Assembly: GCA_018267055.1 (NCBI GenBank)
Contig: JAFDZF010000081.1
Coordinates: 3,345-67,344 of the forward strand
Reading direction: 5' to 3'
Origin: Bacteroidota bacterium
Lineage (GTDB): Bacteria > Bacteroidota > Bacteroidia > Flavobacteriales_F > PHOS-HE28
Length of the DNA stretch: 64,000 bases
Within the stretch, counting starts at the first letter, position 1; each line of letters begins with the position of its first letter. Made by a program: the position numbers and the translations under genes. The notes under the pieces were generated by a model. It was not told where the DNA came from, made no database searches, and saw only the letters and a program-made list of their open reading frames with translations. This document shows, piece by piece, positions 17,384-25,474 of this stretch.

Positions 17384-17851
17384 TCAGGCCTTCGGCCGGC
17401 GGGGCAGCCAGAGCGGCGTGCGGGCGCGGTAGGCCCGGTACGCGTCGCCGAAGCGCCGCACCAGGCCCGGCTCCTCCACCAGGAGGAAGTAGGCCGTGTT
17501 GATGCCGAAGAACAGCACGGCCCATCCGCCCAATAGGAGGGACCGGAACAGCAGCGCCTCGCCCAGGAGCACCAGCAGCACGCCGGCGATCATGGGATTG
17601 CGCACATAGCGGTACGGCCCCTCCACCACCAGCTTCACCGGCGGGTCCCACGGTGCGAGCGTGCCCCGGCCCTTCCGCATGAAGAGCGCGATGCACCGTG
17701 CGGCCAGCACCGCTCCGGCCAGCATCGATAGCAGCGCCACTATGCCCCATCCACCGAACGCGGCGTGGGCGCCGGTGCCGCGCAGCAGCAGCCACGGCAC
17801 TACCAGGGAGATGGTCACCGGCAACGCCAGGATGGCGACGAGGTAGCGCAT
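17384..17851 (-). CDS. Isoprenylcysteine carboxyl methyltransferase (ICMT/PEMT)-family membrane methyltransferase
   Basis: 'GPYRYVRNPMIAG' plus C-terminal 'EEPGLVRRFGDAYRAYRARTP' match the ICMT family signature. Internal ATG 17851. Confidence 0.8.
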   Translation of the reverse strand: MRYLVAILALPVTISLVVPWLLLRGTGAHAAFGGWGIVALLSMLAGAVLAARCIALFMRKGRGTLAPWDPPVKLVVEGPYRYVRNPMIAGVLLVLLGEALLFRSLLLGGWAVLFFGINTAYFLLVEEPGLVRRFGDAYRAYRARTPLWLPRRPKA

Positions 17852-17882
17852 GGAGGCTCCCGAATATCCGAAACCTGTGCGC

Positions 17883-18518
17883 TCAGCGCACCTCACCGCC
17901 CAGCAGGCGGAGCTCCTCTTCCAGGTCCACCCTCGCCGCCGCTTCATAGCGGGCATGGAACGACGCGGTCTTGAAGATGCGGGACATGGCCAGGAAATGA
18001 CGGACCACCTTCCGGCGGCCGGGCATGTACAACAGGTCCGGATAGCGGCGATACTCCCTTCGGATCCCCTGGGTGTACGCCTGGTAACGCGCGGGCTCCG
18101 CGCCCAGGATGCTCAGGTCCGCATCGGTGAAGAGGTCGGTATCCGGGTCCGAGCTCGCCCCATGCGCCTTCGTCGCCAGGATATGCCCTTCGGCACGGCG
18201 GACCAAGGCTTCCGGGATGCCCACCGCCCTCATGCGCTCGCTCATCCGCGCGGCGCTGCGGACCTCATTGTCCTGCCGGACCACATCGTAGATGATGTCG
18301 TGGTATGCGGTCGCCAGCAGCAATGCATCCGGCCCTTCGGCCTCGTGGGCCACTTCGCCCAGCCTGGCATGCACATCCTCCAGGTGGGCGAGCGTATGAT
18401 AGTGCCTTCCCTTGGCCGTATGCGCCCGGACGACCTCCAGCCAATGGCCGTCGATCATGCCCGCATCCACGGCGTGCCGATGCAACATCGACCGAAAGGC
18501 CTGTTCCAGCGCGGACAT
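17883..18518 (-). CDS. HD-superfamily predicted metal-dependent phosphohydrolase (COG4339-like)
   Basis: 'RHYHTLAHLEDV' and 'ATAYHDIIYD' His/Asp motifs. Confidence 0.7.
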   Translation of the reverse strand: MSALEQAFRSMLHRHAVDAGMIDGHWLEVVRAHTAKGRHYHTLAHLEDVHARLGEVAHEAEGPDALLLATAYHDIIYDVVRQDNEVRSAARMSERMRAVGIPEALVRRAEGHILATKAHGASSDPDTDLFTDADLSILGAEPARYQAYTQGIRREYRRYPDLLYMPGRRKVVRHFLAMSRIFKTASFHARYEAAARVDLEEELRLLGGEVR

Positions 18519-18534
18519 GGGATGGATGTCGCCC

Positions 18535-19323
18535 CTACAGCTCCCCCGCTTCGGCGATCAGCTCCGCCACGTCCTTCACCTGCACCTCTCCTTCCTTGTT
18601 GAAGTGCTTCACGCCGTCGGTGAGCATGGTGTTGCAGAACGGGCAGCCGGCGGCGATGATGTTCGGCGCGAGGGCCAGGGCCTCTTCGCTCCGCTCCACG
18701 TTGACCTCCTTGTTCCCGGGCTCGGCCTCCTTGAACATCTGCGCGCCCCCCGCGCCGCAGCACAGGCCCTTCGCGCGGCTGCGCTTCATCTCCACCAGGG
18801 CGGCGTCCAGCTTCAGCAGCACTTCGCGCGGGGCCTCGTACTCATCATTGCCGCGGCCGAGGTAGCAGGGGTCGTGGAAGGTGATGCGCTTGCCCTGGAA
18901 CGAGCCGCCCTCGATCCGGATGCGGCCTTCCTGCAGCAGCGCGTTGATGAACTGCGTGTGGTGCATCACCTCGTAGCTGCCGCCCAGCGCCGGGTATTCG
19001 TTGCGCAGGATGTTGAAGCAATGCGGGCAGGCGGTGACGATGCGCTTCACCCCGTAGCCGTTCAGCACGGTGATGTTGTTCAGCGCCTGCATCTGGAACA
19101 GGAACTCGTTGCCGGCGCGCCGGGCCGGATCGCCGGTGCAGCTCTCCTCCTGCCCCAGCACGGCGAACTTCACGTTGGCCGCGTTGAGGATGCGCACGAA
19201 GGCCTTGGTGATCTTCCGCGCCCGGTCGTCGAAGCTGCCGGCGCAGCCCACCCAGAAGAGCACTTCGGGCACCTCGCCGCTCGCGGCGAAGTCGGCCATC
19301 GTCCGGACCTGCAGCGCGCTCAT
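18535..19323 (-). CDS. CCG-domain (Fe-S)-binding protein, HdrD/GlpC C-terminal-half-like
   Basis: Two cysteine-rich CCG-type repeats ('WVGCAGSF...TACPHCF' and 'GLCCGAGG...AGCPFCN'). Its ATG 19323 overlaps the upstream gene's stop (ATGA). Confidence 0.88.
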   Translation of the reverse strand: MSALQVRTMADFAASGEVPEVLFWVGCAGSFDDRARKITKAFVRILNAANVKFAVLGQEESCTGDPARRAGNEFLFQMQALNNITVLNGYGVKRIVTACPHCFNILRNEYPALGGSYEVMHHTQFINALLQEGRIRIEGGSFQGKRITFHDPCYLGRGNDEYEAPREVLLKLDAALVEMKRSRAKGLCCGAGGAQMFKEAEPGNKEVNVERSEEALALAPNIIAAGCPFCNTMLTDGVKHFNKEGEVQVKDVAELIAEAGEL

Positions 19324-20645
19324 TGTTCCGCCCATTTCAAGCGCTCGCTCTGGGCGAAGGCCCAGGGGGCGCCGTTGTTCTCCACGTTGTTGAACATGCC
19401 GGTGAGCGCGGGCCGCGTGCGGCTCTCCTCCATCACCAGGTAGCGGCGCATGTCGATGATGATGCCCACGGGGTCGATGTTCACCGGGCAGGCCTGCGTG
19501 CAGGCGTTGCAGGTGGTGCAGGCCCAGAGCTCCTCTTCGCTGATGCGGCTGTGGAGGCTCTTGCCGTCGTCCTCCCACGTGCCTTTCGCGTCGATCGTCC
19601 TGCCCACTTCCTCCAGGCGGTCACGCGTGTCCATCATGATCTTGCGCGGGCTCAGCAGCTTGCCGGTGAGGTTGGCCGGGCACTCGCTCGTGCAGCGGCC
19701 GCACTCGGTGCAGCTGTAGGCGTCCATCAGGTTCTTCCACGTGAGGTCGAACACGTCCTTCGCGCCGAAGCGCTCGGTCACTTCCGCACCGGCCACGGTG
19801 CGCGGCGCAGGTGCCGGCGGCGCCACCGACGGATCGAGCATGCTCCTCACCTCACCGGTGACGCGCTCCATGTTCCTGATCTCCGTCTTCGGCCGCAGGC
19901 TGCTGAACCAGGTGTTCGGGAAGGCCAGGAGGATGTGGAAATGCTTGCTGTACGGCAGGTAGTTCAGGAAGGCCAGGATGCCGATGATGTGGAACCACCA
20001 GCAGCAACGTTCGATCAGGATGAGGCCGGACGTACTGAAGTGTTGCAGGATGGGGACCAGCAGGGCCGAGCTTACCGGGAAGGCGCCTGCCACGACGTAG
20101 TGCTCCACGCCGCGTGCCTGCAGGACCTGGTCGGCGGCGTTCATCTTCAGGAATGCGCTCATCAGCGCGATCTCCGTGCAGAGGATCAGCGTGGCGTCGG
20201 TGCGCGGCCAGCCGTCCAGCTCCTTCATCGCGAAGCGCTTCAGCTTGAGGATGTAGCGGCGCACGAGGAAGATGGCGCACGCCACCCACACGCCCAGCGC
20301 CAACCACTCGAAGCTGCCGATCAGGAGGTCGTAGAAGCCACCGAGGAAGCGGAACACGCGGTGCGTACCGAAGATGCCGTCGATGATGATCTCCAGCACC
20401 TCGATGTTGATGATGACGAAACCCGCGTACACGATGATGTGCAGGATGCCCGCGATGGGGCGCGCCACCATCTTGCTCTGGCCCAGCGCCACCCGCGTCA
20501 TGATGCCCCAGCGCTCGCCGGGCCGGTCGCTCCGGTCCTCGTCACGGCCCAGGGCGATGTTGCGGCGCACCTTCGCCGCGTTGCGCGCGAACCACCATAC
20601 GGCGGCAGCGAACAACAGCACGAAGACGATGCTCCCGATGCTCAT
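19320..20645 (-). CDS. Membrane-integral (Fe-S)-binding protein: N-terminal polytopic (NarI/DsrM/HdrE-like) domain fused to a 2x[4Fe-4S] ferredoxin domain
   Basis: About 5-6 TM helices, then 'CTECGRCTSECP' and 'CTTCNACTQACP' (CX2CX2CX3CP twice). Its start overlaps the MlaD stop by 4 nt. Confidence 0.88.
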   Translation of the reverse strand: MSIGSIVFVLLFAAAVWWFARNAAKVRRNIALGRDEDRSDRPGERWGIMTRVALGQSKMVARPIAGILHIIVYAGFVIINIEVLEIIIDGIFGTHRVFRFLGGFYDLLIGSFEWLALGVWVACAIFLVRRYILKLKRFAMKELDGWPRTDATLILCTEIALMSAFLKMNAADQVLQARGVEHYVVAGAFPVSSALLVPILQHFSTSGLILIERCCWWFHIIGILAFLNYLPYSKHFHILLAFPNTWFSSLRPKTEIRNMERVTGEVRSMLDPSVAPPAPAPRTVAGAEVTERFGAKDVFDLTWKNLMDAYSCTECGRCTSECPANLTGKLLSPRKIMMDTRDRLEEVGRTIDAKGTWEDDGKSLHSRISEEELWACTTCNACTQACPVNIDPVGIIIDMRRYLVMEESRTRPALTGMFNNVENNGAPWAFAQSERLKWAEQ

Positions 20646-21670
20646 TTCTTCTCCTGCTGCTTCTGGTAGGCCTGCTGGATGCGCTCGATGTCGGCCTCGC
20701 TCAGCTTGGGCAGCTTGTCCTTCTTGCCGAAGATGGAGAAGTAGCGGTTCGGGTTCGTGCGCAGGTCCTCGAGCAGCAGGTCGAGCTGGCGGCTGGCGGC
20801 GTTGAGGTTGACGTAGAGGCTGTCATCGGACATCAGCTTGCCCAGCGTGCCATGGCCCTCGTTCAGCTTCGTCATGGCGGACCGGAGCTGGCCCGAGGTG
20901 GCCTGCAGGTCGGCCATCACCTGCTCCAGCCGGCCATTGCCCAGCGAGGCGGTGGCGCTGTCGAGGTGCGTGAGGATGCGTCCCAGCTCGTCGTTGTGGT
21001 CGGCCAGGTTGGCGCTCACCTTCTCGGTGTTGCGCAGGATGGAGCTGATGGTGGCGGTCTCCTGGGCCATCAGCGCATCCAGGCGCCCGGCGGAGGAGCG
21101 GATGCTCTCCAGCGTGCCGCGCAGGTTGGCGAAGCTGGCGTCGATGTCGCCCCGTGCGTTCTCGTTCAGGATCAGCTGCAGCGAGGTGAGCACCGAGTCC
21201 ACGCTGGCCAGCATGCCCTCGGCCTTGCGCTTGAGCGGGTCGATCTGCGAGCTGACGTTCTCGGTGAGGCTGAGCTCCGCCCCGCTGCGCAGGGTGTCGC
21301 CCTTGACCGCCGGCTCGGCGCTGTTGCCCAGCTCGATGCGCACCGCCCGCGAGAAGAGGTCGGCGCTGAACAGCTCGGCCCGCGTGTCCTTCGTCAGCTT
21401 CAGGCCGTCCTCGTCGATCTGGAAGGTCACCGCGATGCGGCCGCTGCCGTCGGGCATCAGCTCGGTGCGCACCACCTGGCCCACCTTGTACCCATGGAAG
21501 AGCACCGGCGTGGCGTCGTTGATGCCGGACACGTCGTTGTACACCGCATGGTAGATGTTGCGGCGCTGGAGGAGGTCCATCCCCTTCAGGTAGTTGATGC
21601 CGAAGACCAGCAGCGCGATGCCGCCGAGCACCATGAGGGCGATGGAGTATTCTCGCTTGAACTTCGGCAA
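20642..21670 (-). CDS. MlaD/MCE-family protein
   Basis: N-terminal TM 'IALMVLGGIALLVFGINYL', an MCE domain ('VSGINDATPVLFHGYKVGQVV'), and a long C-terminal helical region. Confidence 0.88.
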   Translation of the reverse strand: MPKFKREYSIALMVLGGIALLVFGINYLKGMDLLQRRNIYHAVYNDVSGINDATPVLFHGYKVGQVVRTELMPDGSGRIAVTFQIDEDGLKLTKDTRAELFSADLFSRAVRIELGNSAEPAVKGDTLRSGAELSLTENVSSQIDPLKRKAEGMLASVDSVLTSLQLILNENARGDIDASFANLRGTLESIRSSAGRLDALMAQETATISSILRNTEKVSANLADHNDELGRILTHLDSATASLGNGRLEQVMADLQATSGQLRSAMTKLNEGHGTLGKLMSDDSLYVNLNAASRQLDLLLEDLRTNPNRYFSIFGKKDKLPKLSEADIERIQQAYQKQQEKK

Positions 21671-21678
21671 GGTCGGGG

Positions 21679-22926
21679 CTATCTGTCGCGGGTCAAATTA
21701 ACGGCTTGCTGCAGATCGATCCGCTTCCCGTCCTTGAACGCCACGATGAAGGCGCCCTCGTACCCCTTGTCCTTGCAGCGCTGCTGCACCTTCCGTGCGC
21801 CCTCCAGGTCCGTTTCCTCGCCCAGCAGGTACTTCCACATGCCCGCCGCGCTCACCTCCTCCACCCCTTCCAGGCCCTTGAAGTTCTTGGGCGTGGGCGC
21901 GATGCGCTTGCCGCTGGTGACCAGCTGCACCTTGAACCGCACCCCGCTGTCCTTCTCCACCCGCGCCGTCACGGCCTTGGAGGTGTCCACCGCCGTGGTG
22001 TCGGGCTTCGCCACGCTTGCGCCGGTGGAGACGTCCTTGCGCTCCATCTGCAGCTTGTACTCCTTGAAGGCCCGGTAGATGGCCGAGGCCATGTGCTCCT
22101 GGCCCTTGTCGCTCTGCAGGTAGTCCTCCTCGGTGCCGTTGCTGAGGAAGCCGAGCTCGATGAGCACCGCCGGCATGGTGGTGTAGCTGATCACCAGGAA
22201 GCCGGCCTGCTTCACGCCCCGGTCGCTGCGGCCCGCCCGGTCCTTGAACTGCTGCTGCACCAGCGCGCTCAGCTGCAGGCTGTGGTCCAGGTAGGCGTTC
22301 TGCCGCAGGCTGAGGGCGATCATGCTCTCGGGGTCCTTGGGGTCGTAGCCATCGTACTTCAGCTCGTGGTCGTCCTCCAGCAGGATGGAGGCGTTCTCCT
22401 TCATCGCCGTGCGCATGTTGGCCTCGGTCTTGTGCAGGCCCATCACGTAGGTCTCGCAGCCGAGGGGCTCGGGCTTGGCGTTGGCGTTGCAGTGGATGCT
22501 GATGAAGACGTCGGCCTTGTTGCGGTTGGCGATCTCGCAGCGCTCCTTCAGCTCGATGAAGCGGTCGTCATCACGGGTGTAGATCACCTTCACGTCCGGG
22601 AAGTTCTCCGTGATGTACTTGCCCACCAGCTTGGTGACGGCCAGGGCCACGTGCTTCTCGGTGGTCTTGTAGCGGCCGGTGCCGAGGTTGCCCGGGTCCT
22701 TGCCGCCGTGGCCGGCGTCCAGCACCACCACGTCCACCTGGTTGGGGTCGCTCCCCGATGCGGGCCGCGCGCGTTGTGGCATGGCCTGTGCGCTGAAGAC
22801 CAGCAGGAAGGCCGCCGCCAGTCCCCATCCACCTCCCGTGCACGCCCCGGACGCCCTGCGACGAAGCGCTACTTTCGGCGCTGCCTTCCGGCCGCCCCGA
22901 CCGCTGATGTCCCGTGTACCCTGCAT
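21679..22926 (-). CDS. N-acetylmuramoyl-L-alanine amidase (Amidase_3) with C-terminal SPOR-like domain
   Basis: 'VVVLDAGHGGKDPG...FISIHCNA...' is the Amidase_3 zinc site. The C-terminal ~80 aa is SPOR-like ('FKVQLVTSGKRI...GYEGAFIVAFKDGKRI'). ATG 22926 is internal to the track ORF. Confidence 0.9.
   Translation of the reverse strand: MQGTRDISGRGGRKAAPKVALRRRASGACTGGGWGLAAAFLLVFSAQAMPQRARPASGSDPNQVDVVVLDAGHGGKDPGNLGTGRYKTTEKHVALAVTKLVGKYITENFPDVKVIYTRDDDRFIELKERCEIANRNKADVFISIHCNANAKPEPLGCETYVMGLHKTEANMRTAMKENASILLEDDHELKYDGYDPKDPESMIALSLRQNAYLDHSLQLSALVQQQFKDRAGRSDRGVKQAGFLVISYTTMPAVLIELGFLSNGTEEDYLQSDKGQEHMASAIYRAFKEYKLQMERKDVSTGASVAKPDTTAVDTSKAVTARVEKDSGVRFKVQLVTSGKRIAPTPKNFKGLEGVEEVSAAGMWKYLLGEETDLEGARKVQQRCKDKGYEGAFIVAFKDGKRIDLQQAVNLTRDR
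22870..22877 (+). promoter_or_regulatory. -7-type promoter box TACTTTCG (lptD-like)
   Basis: 29 nt upstream of ATG 22907. Lies inside the 5' coding region of the divergent amidase gene. Confidence 0.4.
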
Positions 22927-25474
22927 GCCCTTTCCCGGAGCCCGCCCCCTTGGCGTCAGCCGCGAAAGTAGAAGGCCGGCATCCCCCAGGGCGCCTTTCC
23001 CGATCGCGGTTCTCCTCACGTCCGTGTTGATAGGAACGGCGTCCGGGCCGGCTTTCGCACAGGATCTCCAGGACGAGGTGAGGTACGGGGCCCGGGACAG
23101 CATGGTGTACGACCTGGCCCACCAAACGGCGTACCTCTTCGGGGCCGGCCAGGTGCATTACCAGGACGTGGAGCTGACCGCCGACCGGATCCGGCTCGAC
23201 CTGGGCAACGGCATCGTGGAGGCCTTCGGGGCGGCCGACAGCGCCGGCAGGCCCACCGGCACCCCCGAGTTCACCCAGGGCGGGCACAAGGTGACGGCCG
23301 ACACCATCCGCTACAACTTCCGCACGAAGGAGGGGGTGATCAAGGAGGTGCGGACCTCGGAGGAGCAGATGTACGTGATCGCGCACCTGAGCAAGCGGCA
23401 CGCCAACGGCGAAGTGCACAGCAAGGGCGGCATGCTCACCAGCTGCGACCGGCCCCACCCCCACTACCACTTCGCGGTGAGCCGCATGATGGTGATCCCC
23501 GACGACAAGATCGTGGTGGGGCCCGCGGTGATGAAGATCGGCAAGGTGCCCACCCCCCTCGCCCTGCCCTTCGGCTTCTTCCCCAACCACCACGGCGGCT
23601 CGGCCGGCGTGCTCATCCCCACCTGGGGCAATTCCGACCAGCTGGGCTACTTCCTGCTCAACGGCGGCTATTACCTCCCGCTGGGCGACCACTTCGACGA
23701 GCAGCTCACCGCCGACATCTACAGCCGCGGCAGCTGGGGCCTGCGCTCCGTCACCCGCTACCGGTCGCGCTACCGCTTCAGCGGCTCGCTGGACCTGCAG
23801 CACAGCACCAAGCTGAACAGCCTCCCCGAATACCCCGATTTCAGCAAGCAGCGCAACTTCTTCGTGCGCTGGAACCACCTGGTGGACCCCAAGGCCAGCC
23901 TCACCGACCGCTTCACCGCCAGCGTGAACATGGGCTCCAGCCGGAACTTCACCAACAACTTCAACAGCAGCACCCTCGACTACCTGAGCAACACCTTCCA
24001 GAGCAACGTGAGCTGGAACCACCTCTGGAGCGGCAAGCCCTACAGCCTCACCGTGGCCATGCGCCACAGCCAGAACACGCTGACGCGCACCTTCGACATC
24101 ACCCTGCCCGCCCTCACCTTCAACGTGCAGCGGGTCTTCCCCGCCACCTGGTTCCACCCGGGCACCACCGCGAACAAGTGGTACGACCGCATCGGCGTGA
24201 ACTGGACCAGCAACTTCGACAACAAGCTGACCACCACGGAGGACCAGCTCTCGCTGAGCAACCTGGACCGCCTGCTGGACAAGACCCGGAACGGCATCCG
24301 CCATACCGGCGCGGTGACCACCTCGTTCAAGACCCGCCTCTTCACGGTGAACCCCACGATCAGCTTCACCGACCGCACCTACTTCGACGGCCTCCGCAAG
24401 ACCTACTACGCCGGCAGCGACACGGTGGTGACCGACACCGTGCCGGGGGTGCGCAACGTGTTCGATTGGAACGCCAACACCACCTTCACCAGCAAGCTCT
24501 ACGGCATGTACACCTTCGGCAGGGGCCGGCTGAAGGCGATCCGCCACGTGATCACCCCCTCGGCCACGCTGGCGTACATCCCGGGCAACGACACCCGGGT
24601 GTTCGGGCCGTTCGGGACCAACGGGGCCTGGACCGGCTATTCGCCCTTCGACATCGGCATCTACGGCGCGCCCTCGCCCAACGAGAGCGGCCTGCTGTCC
24701 CTGGGCCTGGTGCAGAGCGTGGAGGCCAAGCTGCGGGGCACCGTGCCCGATGCCAACGGCGACGTGGCGGACAAGAAGCTCACCCTGATCGACTTCCTGG
24801 GGATCAACGCGAACTACGACCTGCTGAAGGACTCGGTGCGCTGGTCGCCCGTGAACATCGCCGCCCGCACGCGGCTCTTCAACAAGGTGGACCTGAACCT
24901 GAACAGCACCTGGGACCCGTACGCCACCGACAGCCTGGGGCGCACCATCGACCGGTCGACCCGCACGCTGTACGGCCACCTGGCCCACCTGCGCAACGCC
25001 ACCGCCGCCGTCGGCTTCGAGCTGCAGAGCAAGCGCTACGGCACGCCCGCCTCCTCCCCGCCCCAGGACGACCCCGTGGTGGCCGAGGCCGACCCCGCCA
25101 AGGGCGCCCGGATCAACTTCAGCCTGCCCTGGCACCTGCGGGTGAACTACAGCTACTCCGTGTCGCGCAACTGGCGGGAGCGGGACTTCACCGAGCAGCA
25201 GACCCAGAGCGTGCTGTTCAGCGGCGACCTGAACATCCTGAAATACTGGAAGCTGGGGGTGAGCAGCGGCTACGACCTGGAGGCCGGGGACTGGACGCCC
25301 ACCTCCCTGAACCTGTACTGGGACCTGCACTGCTGGGAATTCAACCTCAACGTGGTCCCGATCGGCATCCGGAAGAGCTTCATGTTCCGCATCAACGTGA
25401 AGGCCAGCACGCTGCGGGACCTGAAGTACGAGCTGCGCCGGCCCTTCGGCAACGACGGCCAACTGCTCTACTGA
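22907..25474 (+). CDS. LptD/OstA-like putative LPS-assembly outer-membrane protein
   Basis: ~855 aa with a signal peptide, an N-terminal OstA-like beta-jellyroll ('VHYQDVELTADRIRLDL'), and a long beta-barrel ending in an aromatic residue. Start is ATG 22907 or 22925. Confidence 0.82.
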   Translation: MSRVPCMPFPGARPLGVSRESRRPASPRAPFPIAVLLTSVLIGTASGPAFAQDLQDEVRYGARDSMVYDLAHQTAYLFGAGQVHYQDVELTADRIRLDLGNGIVEAFGAADSAGRPTGTPEFTQGGHKVTADTIRYNFRTKEGVIKEVRTSEEQMYVIAHLSKRHANGEVHSKGGMLTSCDRPHPHYHFAVSRMMVIPDDKIVVGPAVMKIGKVPTPLALPFGFFPNHHGGSAGVLIPTWGNSDQLGYFLLNGGYYLPLGDHFDEQLTADIYSRGSWGLRSVTRYRSRYRFSGSLDLQHSTKLNSLPEYPDFSKQRNFFVRWNHLVDPKASLTDRFTASVNMGSSRNFTNNFNSSTLDYLSNTFQSNVSWNHLWSGKPYSLTVAMRHSQNTLTRTFDITLPALTFNVQRVFPATWFHPGTTANKWYDRIGVNWTSNFDNKLTTTEDQLSLSNLDRLLDKTRNGIRHTGAVTTSFKTRLFTVNPTISFTDRTYFDGLRKTYYAGSDTVVTDTVPGVRNVFDWNANTTFTSKLYGMYTFGRGRLKAIRHVITPSATLAYIPGNDTRVFGPFGTNGAWTGYSPFDIGIYGAPSPNESGLLSLGLVQSVEAKLRGTVPDANGDVADKKLTLIDFLGINANYDLLKDSVRWSPVNIAARTRLFNKVDLNLNSTWDPYATDSLGRTIDRSTRTLYGHLAHLRNATAAVGFELQSKRYGTPASSPPQDDPVVAEADPAKGARINFSLPWHLRVNYSYSVSRNWRERDFTEQQTQSVLFSGDLNILKYWKLGVSSGYDLEAGDWTPTSLNLYWDLHCWEFNLNVVPIGIRKSFMFRINVKASTLRDLKYELRRPFGNDGQLLY
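22963..22970 (-). promoter_or_regulatory. -7-type promoter box TACTTTCG (amidase operon)
   Basis: 36 nt upstream of ATG 22926. Lies inside the 5' coding region of the divergent lptD-like gene. Confidence 0.4.

Follow-up and report, generated by a model that had tools for sequence, protein, structure and literature searches.

A split EtfD homologue encoded downstream of mlaD in one clade of Flavobacteriia

Introduction

EtfD passes electrons from the breakdown of fatty acids and amino acids to menaquinone. The mycobacterial protein (Rv0338c in M. tuberculosis; PDB entry 9OJN for M. smegmatis) is a single polypeptide consisting of a membrane domain with five transmembrane (TM) helices and heme b, a part carrying two cubane [4Fe-4S] clusters, and two CCG domains. 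According to the paper describing the EtfD structure, the CTG motif in the first of these domains produces a linear [3Fe-4S] cluster that is fully coordinated and has no catalytic role (PMC13083937). EMO of Syntrophus aciditrophicus (ETF:methylmenaquinone oxidoreductase), which is reported as a di-heme protein operating in a reverse redox loop, FadF of B. subtilis and DgcB of P. aeruginosa belong to the same family as EtfD and the proteins described here, with the same inferred role of accepting electrons from reduced ETF at the membrane. The cysteines of the first CCG domain, D1, are missing from FadF and DgcB (PMC13083937). ETF:menaquinone activity has been demonstrated only for actinobacterial and syntrophic homologues. 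Earlier surveys, which demanded more than 75% coverage, located EtfD almost only in Actinobacteria (PMC8593149), and no publication on EtfD in Bacteroidota or Flavobacteria turned up in a literature search.

The Mla system of proteobacteria comprises six components, MlaA to MlaF. The Veillonella parvula type is a three-component MlaEFD system with a long MlaD, containing a single MCE domain and a long helical extension (Grasekamp et al. 2023, PMC10665443). For the MlaD proteins of the FCB group, including Bacteroidetes, no β-barrel has been reported (PMC10665443).

Organization of the gene block

The window, i.e., the whole stretch of DNA that was analysed, comprises 64,000 nt of contig JAFDZF010000081.1 (positions 3,345 to 67,344) from the genome assembly GCA_018267055.1 of a Bacteroidota bacterium. 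Inspection of its open reading frames reveals a block of four genes on the minus strand, in the order amidase, MlaD, a TM protein with two [4Fe-4S] motifs and a CCG-domain protein, accompanied by a divergent gene on the plus strand:

22907..25474, plus strand: LptD_2-family outer-membrane protein, divergent from the amidase (PF19838, 4.5e-135)
21679..22926, minus strand: Amidase_3 N-acetylmuramoyl-L-alanine amidase, first gene of the block (PF01520, 1.2e-51)
20642..21670, minus strand: MlaD/MCE protein, 342 aa, TTG start (Pfam MlaD, 1.6e-11)
20642..20645, minus strand: ATGA stop/start overlap between mlaD and the gene for the EtfD N-half (sequence)
19320..20645, minus strand: N-terminal half of the EtfD homologue, TM and two [4Fe-4S], 441 aa (Pfam Fer4 dicluster, 1.4e-11)
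19320..19323, minus strand: ATGA stop/start overlap between the EtfD N-half and C-half, the fission point (sequence)
18535..19323, minus strand: C-terminal half of the EtfD homologue, two CCG domains, 262 aa (Pfam CCG, 2.7e-31)

The gene order, the common direction, the 8-nt distance between the amidase stop and the MlaD start, and both ATGA overlaps agree with the first-pass annotation of this DNA, as does the divergent lptD-like neighbour, which gives a strong LptD_2 match. Its description of the first gene as an amidase with a SPOR domain is confirmed for the amidase part only, as no SPOR domain is detected by Pfam in the C-terminus at E ≤ 0.05. The start of the amidase is uncertain, and may be the ATG at 22926 or, for the longest open reading frame, position 23103.

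Overlaps of 4 nt are frequent in this genome with its GC content of 66%, and are by themselves unremarkable. A protein complex deduced from tight overlaps alone was rejected, as the amidase gene, too, is tightly joined to mlaD, and we know of no proposal of an amidase-MlaD complex. Downstream of the CCG gene lies a gene of 211 aa, which has no Pfam match and is not found at the loci of relatives, and thus falls outside any conserved unit. The Bacteroidota -7 motif TAnnTTTG occurs six times in the window and not at all between 17.5 and 23.5 kb. Scans of positions 17500-23500 yielded no sigma-70 promoters, and terminator-like sites that are no commoner than in shuffled sequence. These scans are evidence neither for nor against internal transcription signals.

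The block probably combines two unrelated housekeeping functions in one transcription unit, a split EtfD and the MCE subunit of an Mla-type transporter. It would be a lineage-specific operon, and not a new lipid-transport/redox machine. What the data show directly is which families the proteins belong to, how far the ligands are conserved, how many copies of the genes there are, which genes are orthologous and how synteny is distributed.

The Fe-S protein pair as a split homologue of EtfD

When concatenated, the two Fe-S proteins align with M. smegmatis EtfD (chain 9ojn_A) over residues 19-741 with an E-value of 7.2e-110, and the alignment spans the junction between the halves. Separate phmmer comparisons place the N-half at chain residues 19-333 (2.8e-31) and the C-half at residues 496-741 (2.6e-73). 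As the structure of EtfD has been solved, the match also settles the fold of the halves. Mapping of the published cofactor and quinone-site residues of EtfD (26 positions, taken from PMC13083937) shows that 25 of them are identical in the pair. The N-half contains a NarI-like membrane domain, in which His69 and His237 align with the heme-b ligands His78 and His241 of EtfD, and Phe76 and Phe226 with the menaquinone-site residues Phe85 and Phe230. Arg130 and Arg317 are also conserved, but EtfD Arg150 aligns with a leucine. The membrane domain is accompanied by two cubane [4Fe-4S] motifs (CxxCxxCxxxCP; C312/315/318/322 and C376/379/382/386), with all eight cysteines conserved. In the C-half, the residues of the linear [3Fe-4S] motif of D1 (C27, C62-T63, C99 and C102) and the ligands of the noncubane [4Fe-4S] cluster of the second domain, D2 (C153, C188, C189, C227, C230 and H101, the last corresponding to EtfD His583), are all identical to those of EtfD. 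The first CCG domain thus reads C62-T63-G, and T63 is the counterpart of Thr539, the threonine that in EtfD takes the place of an Hdr cysteine.

The module order is the same as in mycobacterial EtfD. In contrast to that protein, however, the pair is encoded by two genes, which overlap by ATGA in the linker between the ferredoxin part and the first CCG domain; it lacks the disordered C-terminal tail of ~30 kDa, and its genes lie downstream of an amidase gene and mlaD. Other classes of Bacteroidota carry the gene as a single fused open reading frame of about 650-715 aa. The split concerns the architecture and not the chemistry of EtfD. Judged by sequence, the pair is a split homologue of EtfD, the ETF:menaquinone oxidoreductase, and ETF:menaquinone activity is predicted for it. 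The first-pass annotation had correctly named the class, a quinone-linked module with TM, ferredoxin and CCG parts, but had called its function undescribed, while EtfD is already characterised both structurally and genetically.

Genes 3 and 4 together would represent a gene-fission version of EtfD, also known as EMO and with FadF as a homologue. Acyl-CoA dehydrogenases would load EtfBA, and reduced EtfBA would donate its electrons to the cytoplasmic Fe-S wire of EtfD, running from the linear [3Fe-4S] cluster via the noncubane [4Fe-4S] cluster and the two cubane [4Fe-4S] clusters to the membrane heme b and finally to menaquinone. Where the gene is split, the ATGA overlap may ensure that the halves are made in roughly equal amounts. 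A two-gene EtfD would slip through a coverage filter of more than 75%. With the present assignment, the labels "(Fe-S)-binding protein" and "heterodisulfide reductase subunit C", which sit on thousands of Flavobacteriales proteins, could give way to a specific predicted function, ETF:menaquinone oxidoreductase. The natural split in the ferredoxin/CCG linker could also help to dissect EtfD.

Co-occurrence of EtfD and ETF

The genome contains a single EtfD pair, an etfB-etfA pair on contig C199 and four acyl-CoA dehydrogenases, and no canonical ETF-QO was found in it, a setting that fits the role of EtfD. The co-occurrence of the genes was analysed in 36 Flavobacteriia genomes, 32 with and four without the EtfD pair. 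ETF is present in all 32 genomes carrying the pair and absent from three of the four that lack it, the lone exception being G031, which retains ETF. In other Bacteroidota the genes can also be neighbours: in G013, etfB, etfA and the genes for both EtfD halves are contiguous, and in G016 etfBA adjoins a fused EtfD gene. The window itself contains no ETF gene, and no gene for a flavoprotein dehydrogenase subunit lies adjacent to the pair.

MlaD and its MlaEF partners

MlaD is of the long type, with an N-terminal TM anchor (hydrophobic stretch at residues 9-27), one MCE domain (Pfam MlaD match at residues 39-109) and a long helical C-terminal region. It shows some similarity to the actinobacterial family TIGR00996 (Mtu_fam_mce; 2.1e-16, residues 12-269), at 60 bits, which is below the curated cut-off of 140.5. 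A TTG start is inferred for mlaD at seven of nine loci, including the window (six of the eight relatives).

The first-pass annotation had stated that neither MlaE nor MlaF is encoded in the 64 kb. For MlaE this holds, as tblastn detects none in the window; the sole MlaF-like match is a generic ABC ATPase at 1288-1953 with 32-39% identity and no adjacent MlaE. Its reservation that mlaEF may lie elsewhere in the genome proved correct. The genome encodes two MlaE and two MlaD proteins, with an mlaEFD operon on contig C109 and, on contig C68, an mlaEF pair without mlaD, whose genes are joined by an ATGA overlap. An unlinked mlaEF pair is present in all 36 sampled Flavobacteriia genomes. These pairs are orthologous to C68 mlaEF (44-64% identity, against 24-36% to C109 mlaE). 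The numbers of MlaE and MlaD proteins are equal in 33 of the 36 genomes, and wherever there is one of each (19 genomes) they are encoded at separate loci (19/19). No MlaA (PF04333) or MlaC (PF05494) match is found in the genome; the same profiles do match in the controls, E. coli and Caulobacter.

MlaD is therefore not functionally an orphan. Orthology and copy number point to C68 MlaEF as its probable partner, and so favour the canonical partnership with an mlaFE pair elsewhere that the first-pass annotation had held against its own proposal. MlaD would be the periplasmic MCE subunit of a core three-component Mla-type transporter, with permease and ATPase provided from C68. The single MCE domain, the long helical extension and the presence of MlaE and MlaF without MlaA and MlaC correspond to the Veillonella parvula type, from which the system differs in that mlaD is unlinked from mlaEF and lies beside the amidase and LptD_2 genes, as is usual throughout Flavobacteriia. 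These bacteria thus encode their core Mla system in two unlinked pieces and, with unlinked mlaEF being the rule, an "orphan MlaD" in this group should not be taken as a sign of a system without an ATPase.

Conservation of the MlaD-EtfD adjacency

The adjacency of amidase and mlaD is kept in 17 of the 22 Flavobacteriia loci examined, and is retained in four genomes without EtfD. The order lptD-like gene, divergent amidase, mlaD is kept at five loci (L039, L040, L041, L045 and L069). MlaD would accordingly belong to a conserved envelope neighbourhood, to which the EtfD pair may have been added, on the downstream side of mlaD, in a single clade of Flavobacteriia whose members then inherited it. 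The EtfD tree places the adjacency in one clade (support 99/97), and one or two evolutionary events account for it. Five other families of Flavobacteriia lack it, as do the other Bacteroidota loci examined; at those outside Flavobacteriia the fused EtfD gene is preceded by PhzF-like, BioY or hydrolase genes and never by mlaD. Conservation beyond this genome, on which the first-pass annotation had made its proposal depend, therefore extends to several families of a single clade and is missing from the families and loci examined outside it. The tight gene packing that it had described is real and likewise conserved in several families. Within the block-bearing clade, the junction between mlaD and the gene for the EtfD N-half is the tightest of the three junctions of the block, at -4 to +9 nt in eight of ten block-bearing loci including the window. 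It is conserved in four sampled families, and in a fifth judged from match coordinates alone, over a GC range of 0.32 to 0.66 and with MlaD identities of only about 30%. Such constancy suggests that co-transcription, perhaps with translational coupling, is maintained and not merely tolerated. The reading of two unrelated functions leaves the tightness of this junction within the clade unaccounted for.

Alternative interpretations

The tight junction, together with the absence of a detected promoter- or terminator-like signal between the genes, could be explained if the two systems were coupled metabolically or by regulation, with no complex between them: lipid retrieved or imported by Mla would feed β-oxidation, and co-transcription of the genes for MlaD and EtfD would match this flux to electron disposal. 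There is a mycobacterial precedent in lipid import by Mce1/Mce4 and EtfD-dependent β-oxidation (PMC8593149), and the long helical MlaD with its sub-threshold similarity to TIGR00996 is in line with it. Such coupling is nevertheless unlikely, as the adjacency reflects one or two events and is missing from the families and loci listed above, MlaD stays with envelope genes (amidase and lptD-like) where EtfD is absent or encoded elsewhere, and neither etfBA nor the acyl-CoA dehydrogenase genes are part of the block. It is rather improbable that the one-clade block is a selected unit in which the MCE subunit is translationally coupled to the electron disposal of β-oxidation. In that case the core Mla-type transporter would retrieve or import a glycerolipid or fatty acid, and envelope lipid turnover would be tied to respiration, paralleling the dependence of Mce1/Mce4 on EtfD in mycobacteria. 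Lipid handling and β-oxidation may be weakly linked in function.

The Fe-S pair might also be a menaquinol:disulfide oxidoreductase of the HdrDE/DsrMK type, or a dehydrogenase anchor resembling GlpC, LutAB or DgcB. It has its fold and superfamily in common with HdrDE/DsrMK, it gives weak NCBIfam matches to TfrB, LdhH, TmcB, GlpC and DsrK, all far below the cut-offs, and the window lacks an ETF gene. However, HdrDE/DsrMK have canonical CCG motifs in both domains, whereas the first motif of the pair is CTG, exactly as in EtfD, and the D1 cysteines that FadF and DgcB lack are present. Moreover, no flavoprotein dehydrogenase subunit is encoded next to the pair, and its genomic partners are ETF proteins and not a thiol/disulfide carrier, since three genomes have lost both the pair and ETF, and etfBA lies beside the EtfD gene in other Bacteroidota. 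This makes such a function very unlikely.

The proposal of the first-pass annotation that the MCE protein works with a redox module in place of an ABC ATPase, in a physical complex of MlaD with the Fe-S membrane protein, can draw on the ATGA overlaps, the clade-conserved tight junction and the inner-membrane location of both proteins, but is extremely improbable, as all 36 genomes contain orthologous mlaEF, in 33 of them with a copy number matching that of MlaD, MlaD occurs without the Fe-S pair in four genomes and the Fe-S gene across Bacteroidota without an adjacent mlaD, and the Fe-S pair already has a documented type of partner, ETF. We infer that MlaD and EtfD do not form a complex; homology to 9OJN puts the redox domains in the cytoplasm, across the membrane from the periplasmic MCE domain, which leaves TM helices as the only place where the two proteins could touch.

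Organization of the gene block

The block consists of four genes on the minus strand, next to a divergent gene for an LptD-like protein. The Fe-S pair is denoted here EtfD_N and EtfD_C, after the ETF:menaquinone oxidoreductase EtfD.

Genes of the block and its divergent neighbour (window positions)
22907-25474, plus strand: LptD_2 protein, divergent from the amidase (Pfam, 4.5e-135)
21679-22926, minus strand: Amidase_3 gene (Pfam, 1.2e-51); a longer ORF begins at 23103
20642-21670, minus strand: MlaD gene (Pfam MlaD, 1.6e-11), TTG start at 21668-21670
19320-20645, minus strand: EtfD_N, 441 aa, Pfam 4Fe-4S dicluster domain at residues 308-391
18535-19323, minus strand: EtfD_C, 262 aa, two CCG domains (Pfam, 2.7e-31)

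The tight, co-directional packing described in the first-pass annotation is borne out by the ORF positions and Pfam assignments, by the 8 nt between the amidase stop and the TTG start of MlaD, and by ATGA overlaps at 20642-45 (MlaD/EtfD_N) and 19320-23 (EtfD_N/EtfD_C). The sole detail of that description not recovered is a SPOR domain in the amidase, which Pfam does not detect. The last ~85 residues of the amidase, a putative SPOR-like domain undetected by Pfam, have a 40%-identical paralogous copy elsewhere in the genome (contig C131:369-623). Further downstream, at 17384-17956 (minus strand) and separated from the EtfD pair by one gene, is an ORF for a membrane protein of 190 aa, in which a PEMT/ICMT-type methyltransferase domain is recognised (3.3e-10). 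The intervening 211-aa gene (17883-18518) has no family match and was not found in the loci of relatives.

Identity of the Fe-S pair

Both Fe-S proteins were searched by sequence against solved structures and share one strong match, chain 9ojn_A, an 'iron-sulfur-binding reductase' of 1042 aa. EtfD_N matches chain residues 19-333 (2.8e-31), EtfD_C residues 496-741 (2.6e-73), and the concatenated proteins residues 19-741 (7.2e-110). Chain 9ojn_A is Mycobacterium smegmatis EtfD, a membrane oxidoreductase which receives electrons from acyl-CoA dehydrogenases via electron-transfer flavoprotein (ETF) and passes them to menaquinone (PMC13083937).

The cofactor ligands of EtfD listed in the structure paper (PMC13083937) were transferred to the pair via a HMMER alignment. 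Identical residues are found at 25 of the 26 mapped positions, the sole difference being Arg150. In EtfD_N, the heme-b ligands His78/His241 correspond to His69/His237, the menaquinone-site residues Phe85/Phe230 to Phe76/Phe226, and the eight cysteines that bind the two cubane clusters are all kept. EtfD_C retains the ligands of the linear [3Fe-4S] cluster D1 (Cys503, Cys538, Cys581, Cys584) and those of D2 (Cys637, Cys672, Cys673, Cys709, Cys712, His583). Thr539 of EtfD is also kept, whereas HdrDE/DsrMK-type heterodisulfide reductases have a catalytic-type cysteine at this position. The two genes meet in the linker that joins the ferredoxin domain to the first CCG domain. Together with the ligand conservation, this position identifies the pair, on sequence grounds, as a gene-fission form of EtfD, whose enzyme family is already known and has been characterised structurally. 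As a new architecture of a known system, in an operon restricted to one clade, it is of modest interest.

Probable partnership with ETF

The genome (3.86 Mb, 99.5% complete) contains this EtfD pair only, one etfB-etfA pair (contig C199) and four acyl-CoA dehydrogenase genes; no canonical ETF-QO was found in it. EtfD is widespread among 150 sampled Bacteroidota genomes. It is split into two genes in Flavobacteriia and one other sampled family (G013, G040), whereas the other classes have one fused ORF of about 650-715 aa. Of 36 Flavobacteriia genomes, all 32 with the EtfD pair contain ETF, and three of the four without the pair (G075, G119, G127) have no ETF at all. In genome G013 the order etfB-etfA-EtfD_N-EtfD_C is found on one strand, and in G016 etfBA adjoins a fused EtfD gene. 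This phyletic and gene-context pattern is classic for functional partners, here EtfD and ETF; no comparable signs tie the EtfD pair to MlaD.

Probable transporter partners of MlaD

As reported previously, the window contains no MlaE; its sole MlaF-like match is a generic ABC ATPase (1288-1953). The whole genome contains two MlaE and two MlaD genes. On contig C68 mlaE and mlaF are joined by an ATGA overlap without mlaD, and on contig C109 mlaE, mlaF and mlaD form one contiguous operon (locus L005, 4757-7300, minus strand). As many MlaE as MlaD genes are present in 33 of the 36 Flavobacteriia genomes, and in all 19 genomes with a single copy of both, these are far apart or on different contigs. 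All 12 unlinked or single mlaEF loci examined are orthologues of the C68 pair, with MlaE identities of 44-64% to the C68 copy versus 24-36% to the C109 copy, and none has mlaD within 3 kb. Extra Mla copies in Flavobacteriia are C109-type mlaEFD operons. The equal copy numbers and C68-type orthology indicate that the core Mla system of Flavobacteriia is encoded in two pieces, of which the MlaD in the window would be the D subunit. MlaA and MlaC were not found in this genome, in agreement with the three-component systems with a 'long MlaD' that are known from bacteria other than Proteobacteria (PMC10665443).

MlaD is thus functionally no orphan, and the proposed MCE-redox machine is unsupported, the Fe-S pair being a split EtfD and the predicted ABC partners of MlaD lying elsewhere in the genome. 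C109-type operons, accessory paralogues of the core system, occur in about 40% of the Flavobacteriia genomes sampled.

Distribution of the MlaD-EtfD adjacency

The suggested survey of the adjacency gave a divided answer: it is kept across several Flavobacteriia families, but is absent from five others and from the non-Flavobacteriia loci examined. The full block occurs in the window's family and three more Flavobacteriia families (L007, L008, L012, L015, L016, L019, L020, L034); locus L025 (genome G087) stops within mlaD, with the amidase outside the sequence seen, and in a fifth family (G027) the adjacency was judged solely by match coordinates. In the five families with the EtfD pair elsewhere, the genes upstream of it are divergent in four of seven loci examined. 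The order lptD-like/divergent amidase/MlaD is kept in four of the loci examined from these families (L039, L040, L041, L045), and amidase-MlaD in all four EtfD-less genomes (L066-L069).

Outside Flavobacteriia, MlaD is upstream of fused EtfD in none of 11 loci examined; the upstream ORF is PhzF-like, BioY or an alpha/beta-hydrolase in ten and has no significant family in the other. A PhzF-family isomerase-like gene lies directly upstream of, and co-directional with, fused EtfD in three different families, and BioY replaces it in two others (PhzF-family or BioY neighbours: L021, L023, L027, L028, L031).

In a maximum-likelihood tree of EtfD every adjacency-bearing genome falls in one clade (support 99/97), with one nested exception lacking the adjacency. 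One or two evolutionary events would therefore explain the juxtaposition, with no repeated origin.

Junction spacing and start codon

Of the three junctions, MlaD-EtfD_N is the tightest within the clade: it measures -4 to +9 nt in eight of ten loci, including the window, at GC contents from 32% to 66% and MlaD identities of only about 30%. Amidase-MlaD spacing is 0-55 nt and EtfD_N-EtfD_C spacing -4 to 624 nt. In three loci (L019, L034, L025) the EtfD halves are separated by an inserted HAD-like gene of about 140-160 aa. The insert, at about 3813-4384 in L019 with the motif DIDGT...GKPRGG, has no counterpart in the window. The sole interrupted MlaD-EtfD junction within the clade is a 680-nt gap in L025, containing an opposite-strand 146-aa ORF with the P-loop motif GLPGSGKST.

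Given the tight junction at such diverse GC and low identity, co-transcription of MlaD with EtfD seems to have been maintained, so that lipid handling and beta-oxidation might be linked metabolically or by regulation. We consider such a link improbable, yet worth stating because Mce-imported lipids depend on EtfD in mycobacteria (PMC8593149).

An inferred TTG start is found for amidase-linked MlaD in seven of nine loci, i.e., the window and six of eight relatives (L007, L008, L015, L016, L019, L034), across GC fractions of 0.32-0.66 and with a conserved N-terminus, M-K-x-[TS]-[KR]-E-I-K. The conservation of this weak start codon suggests that translation of MlaD is deliberately kept low.
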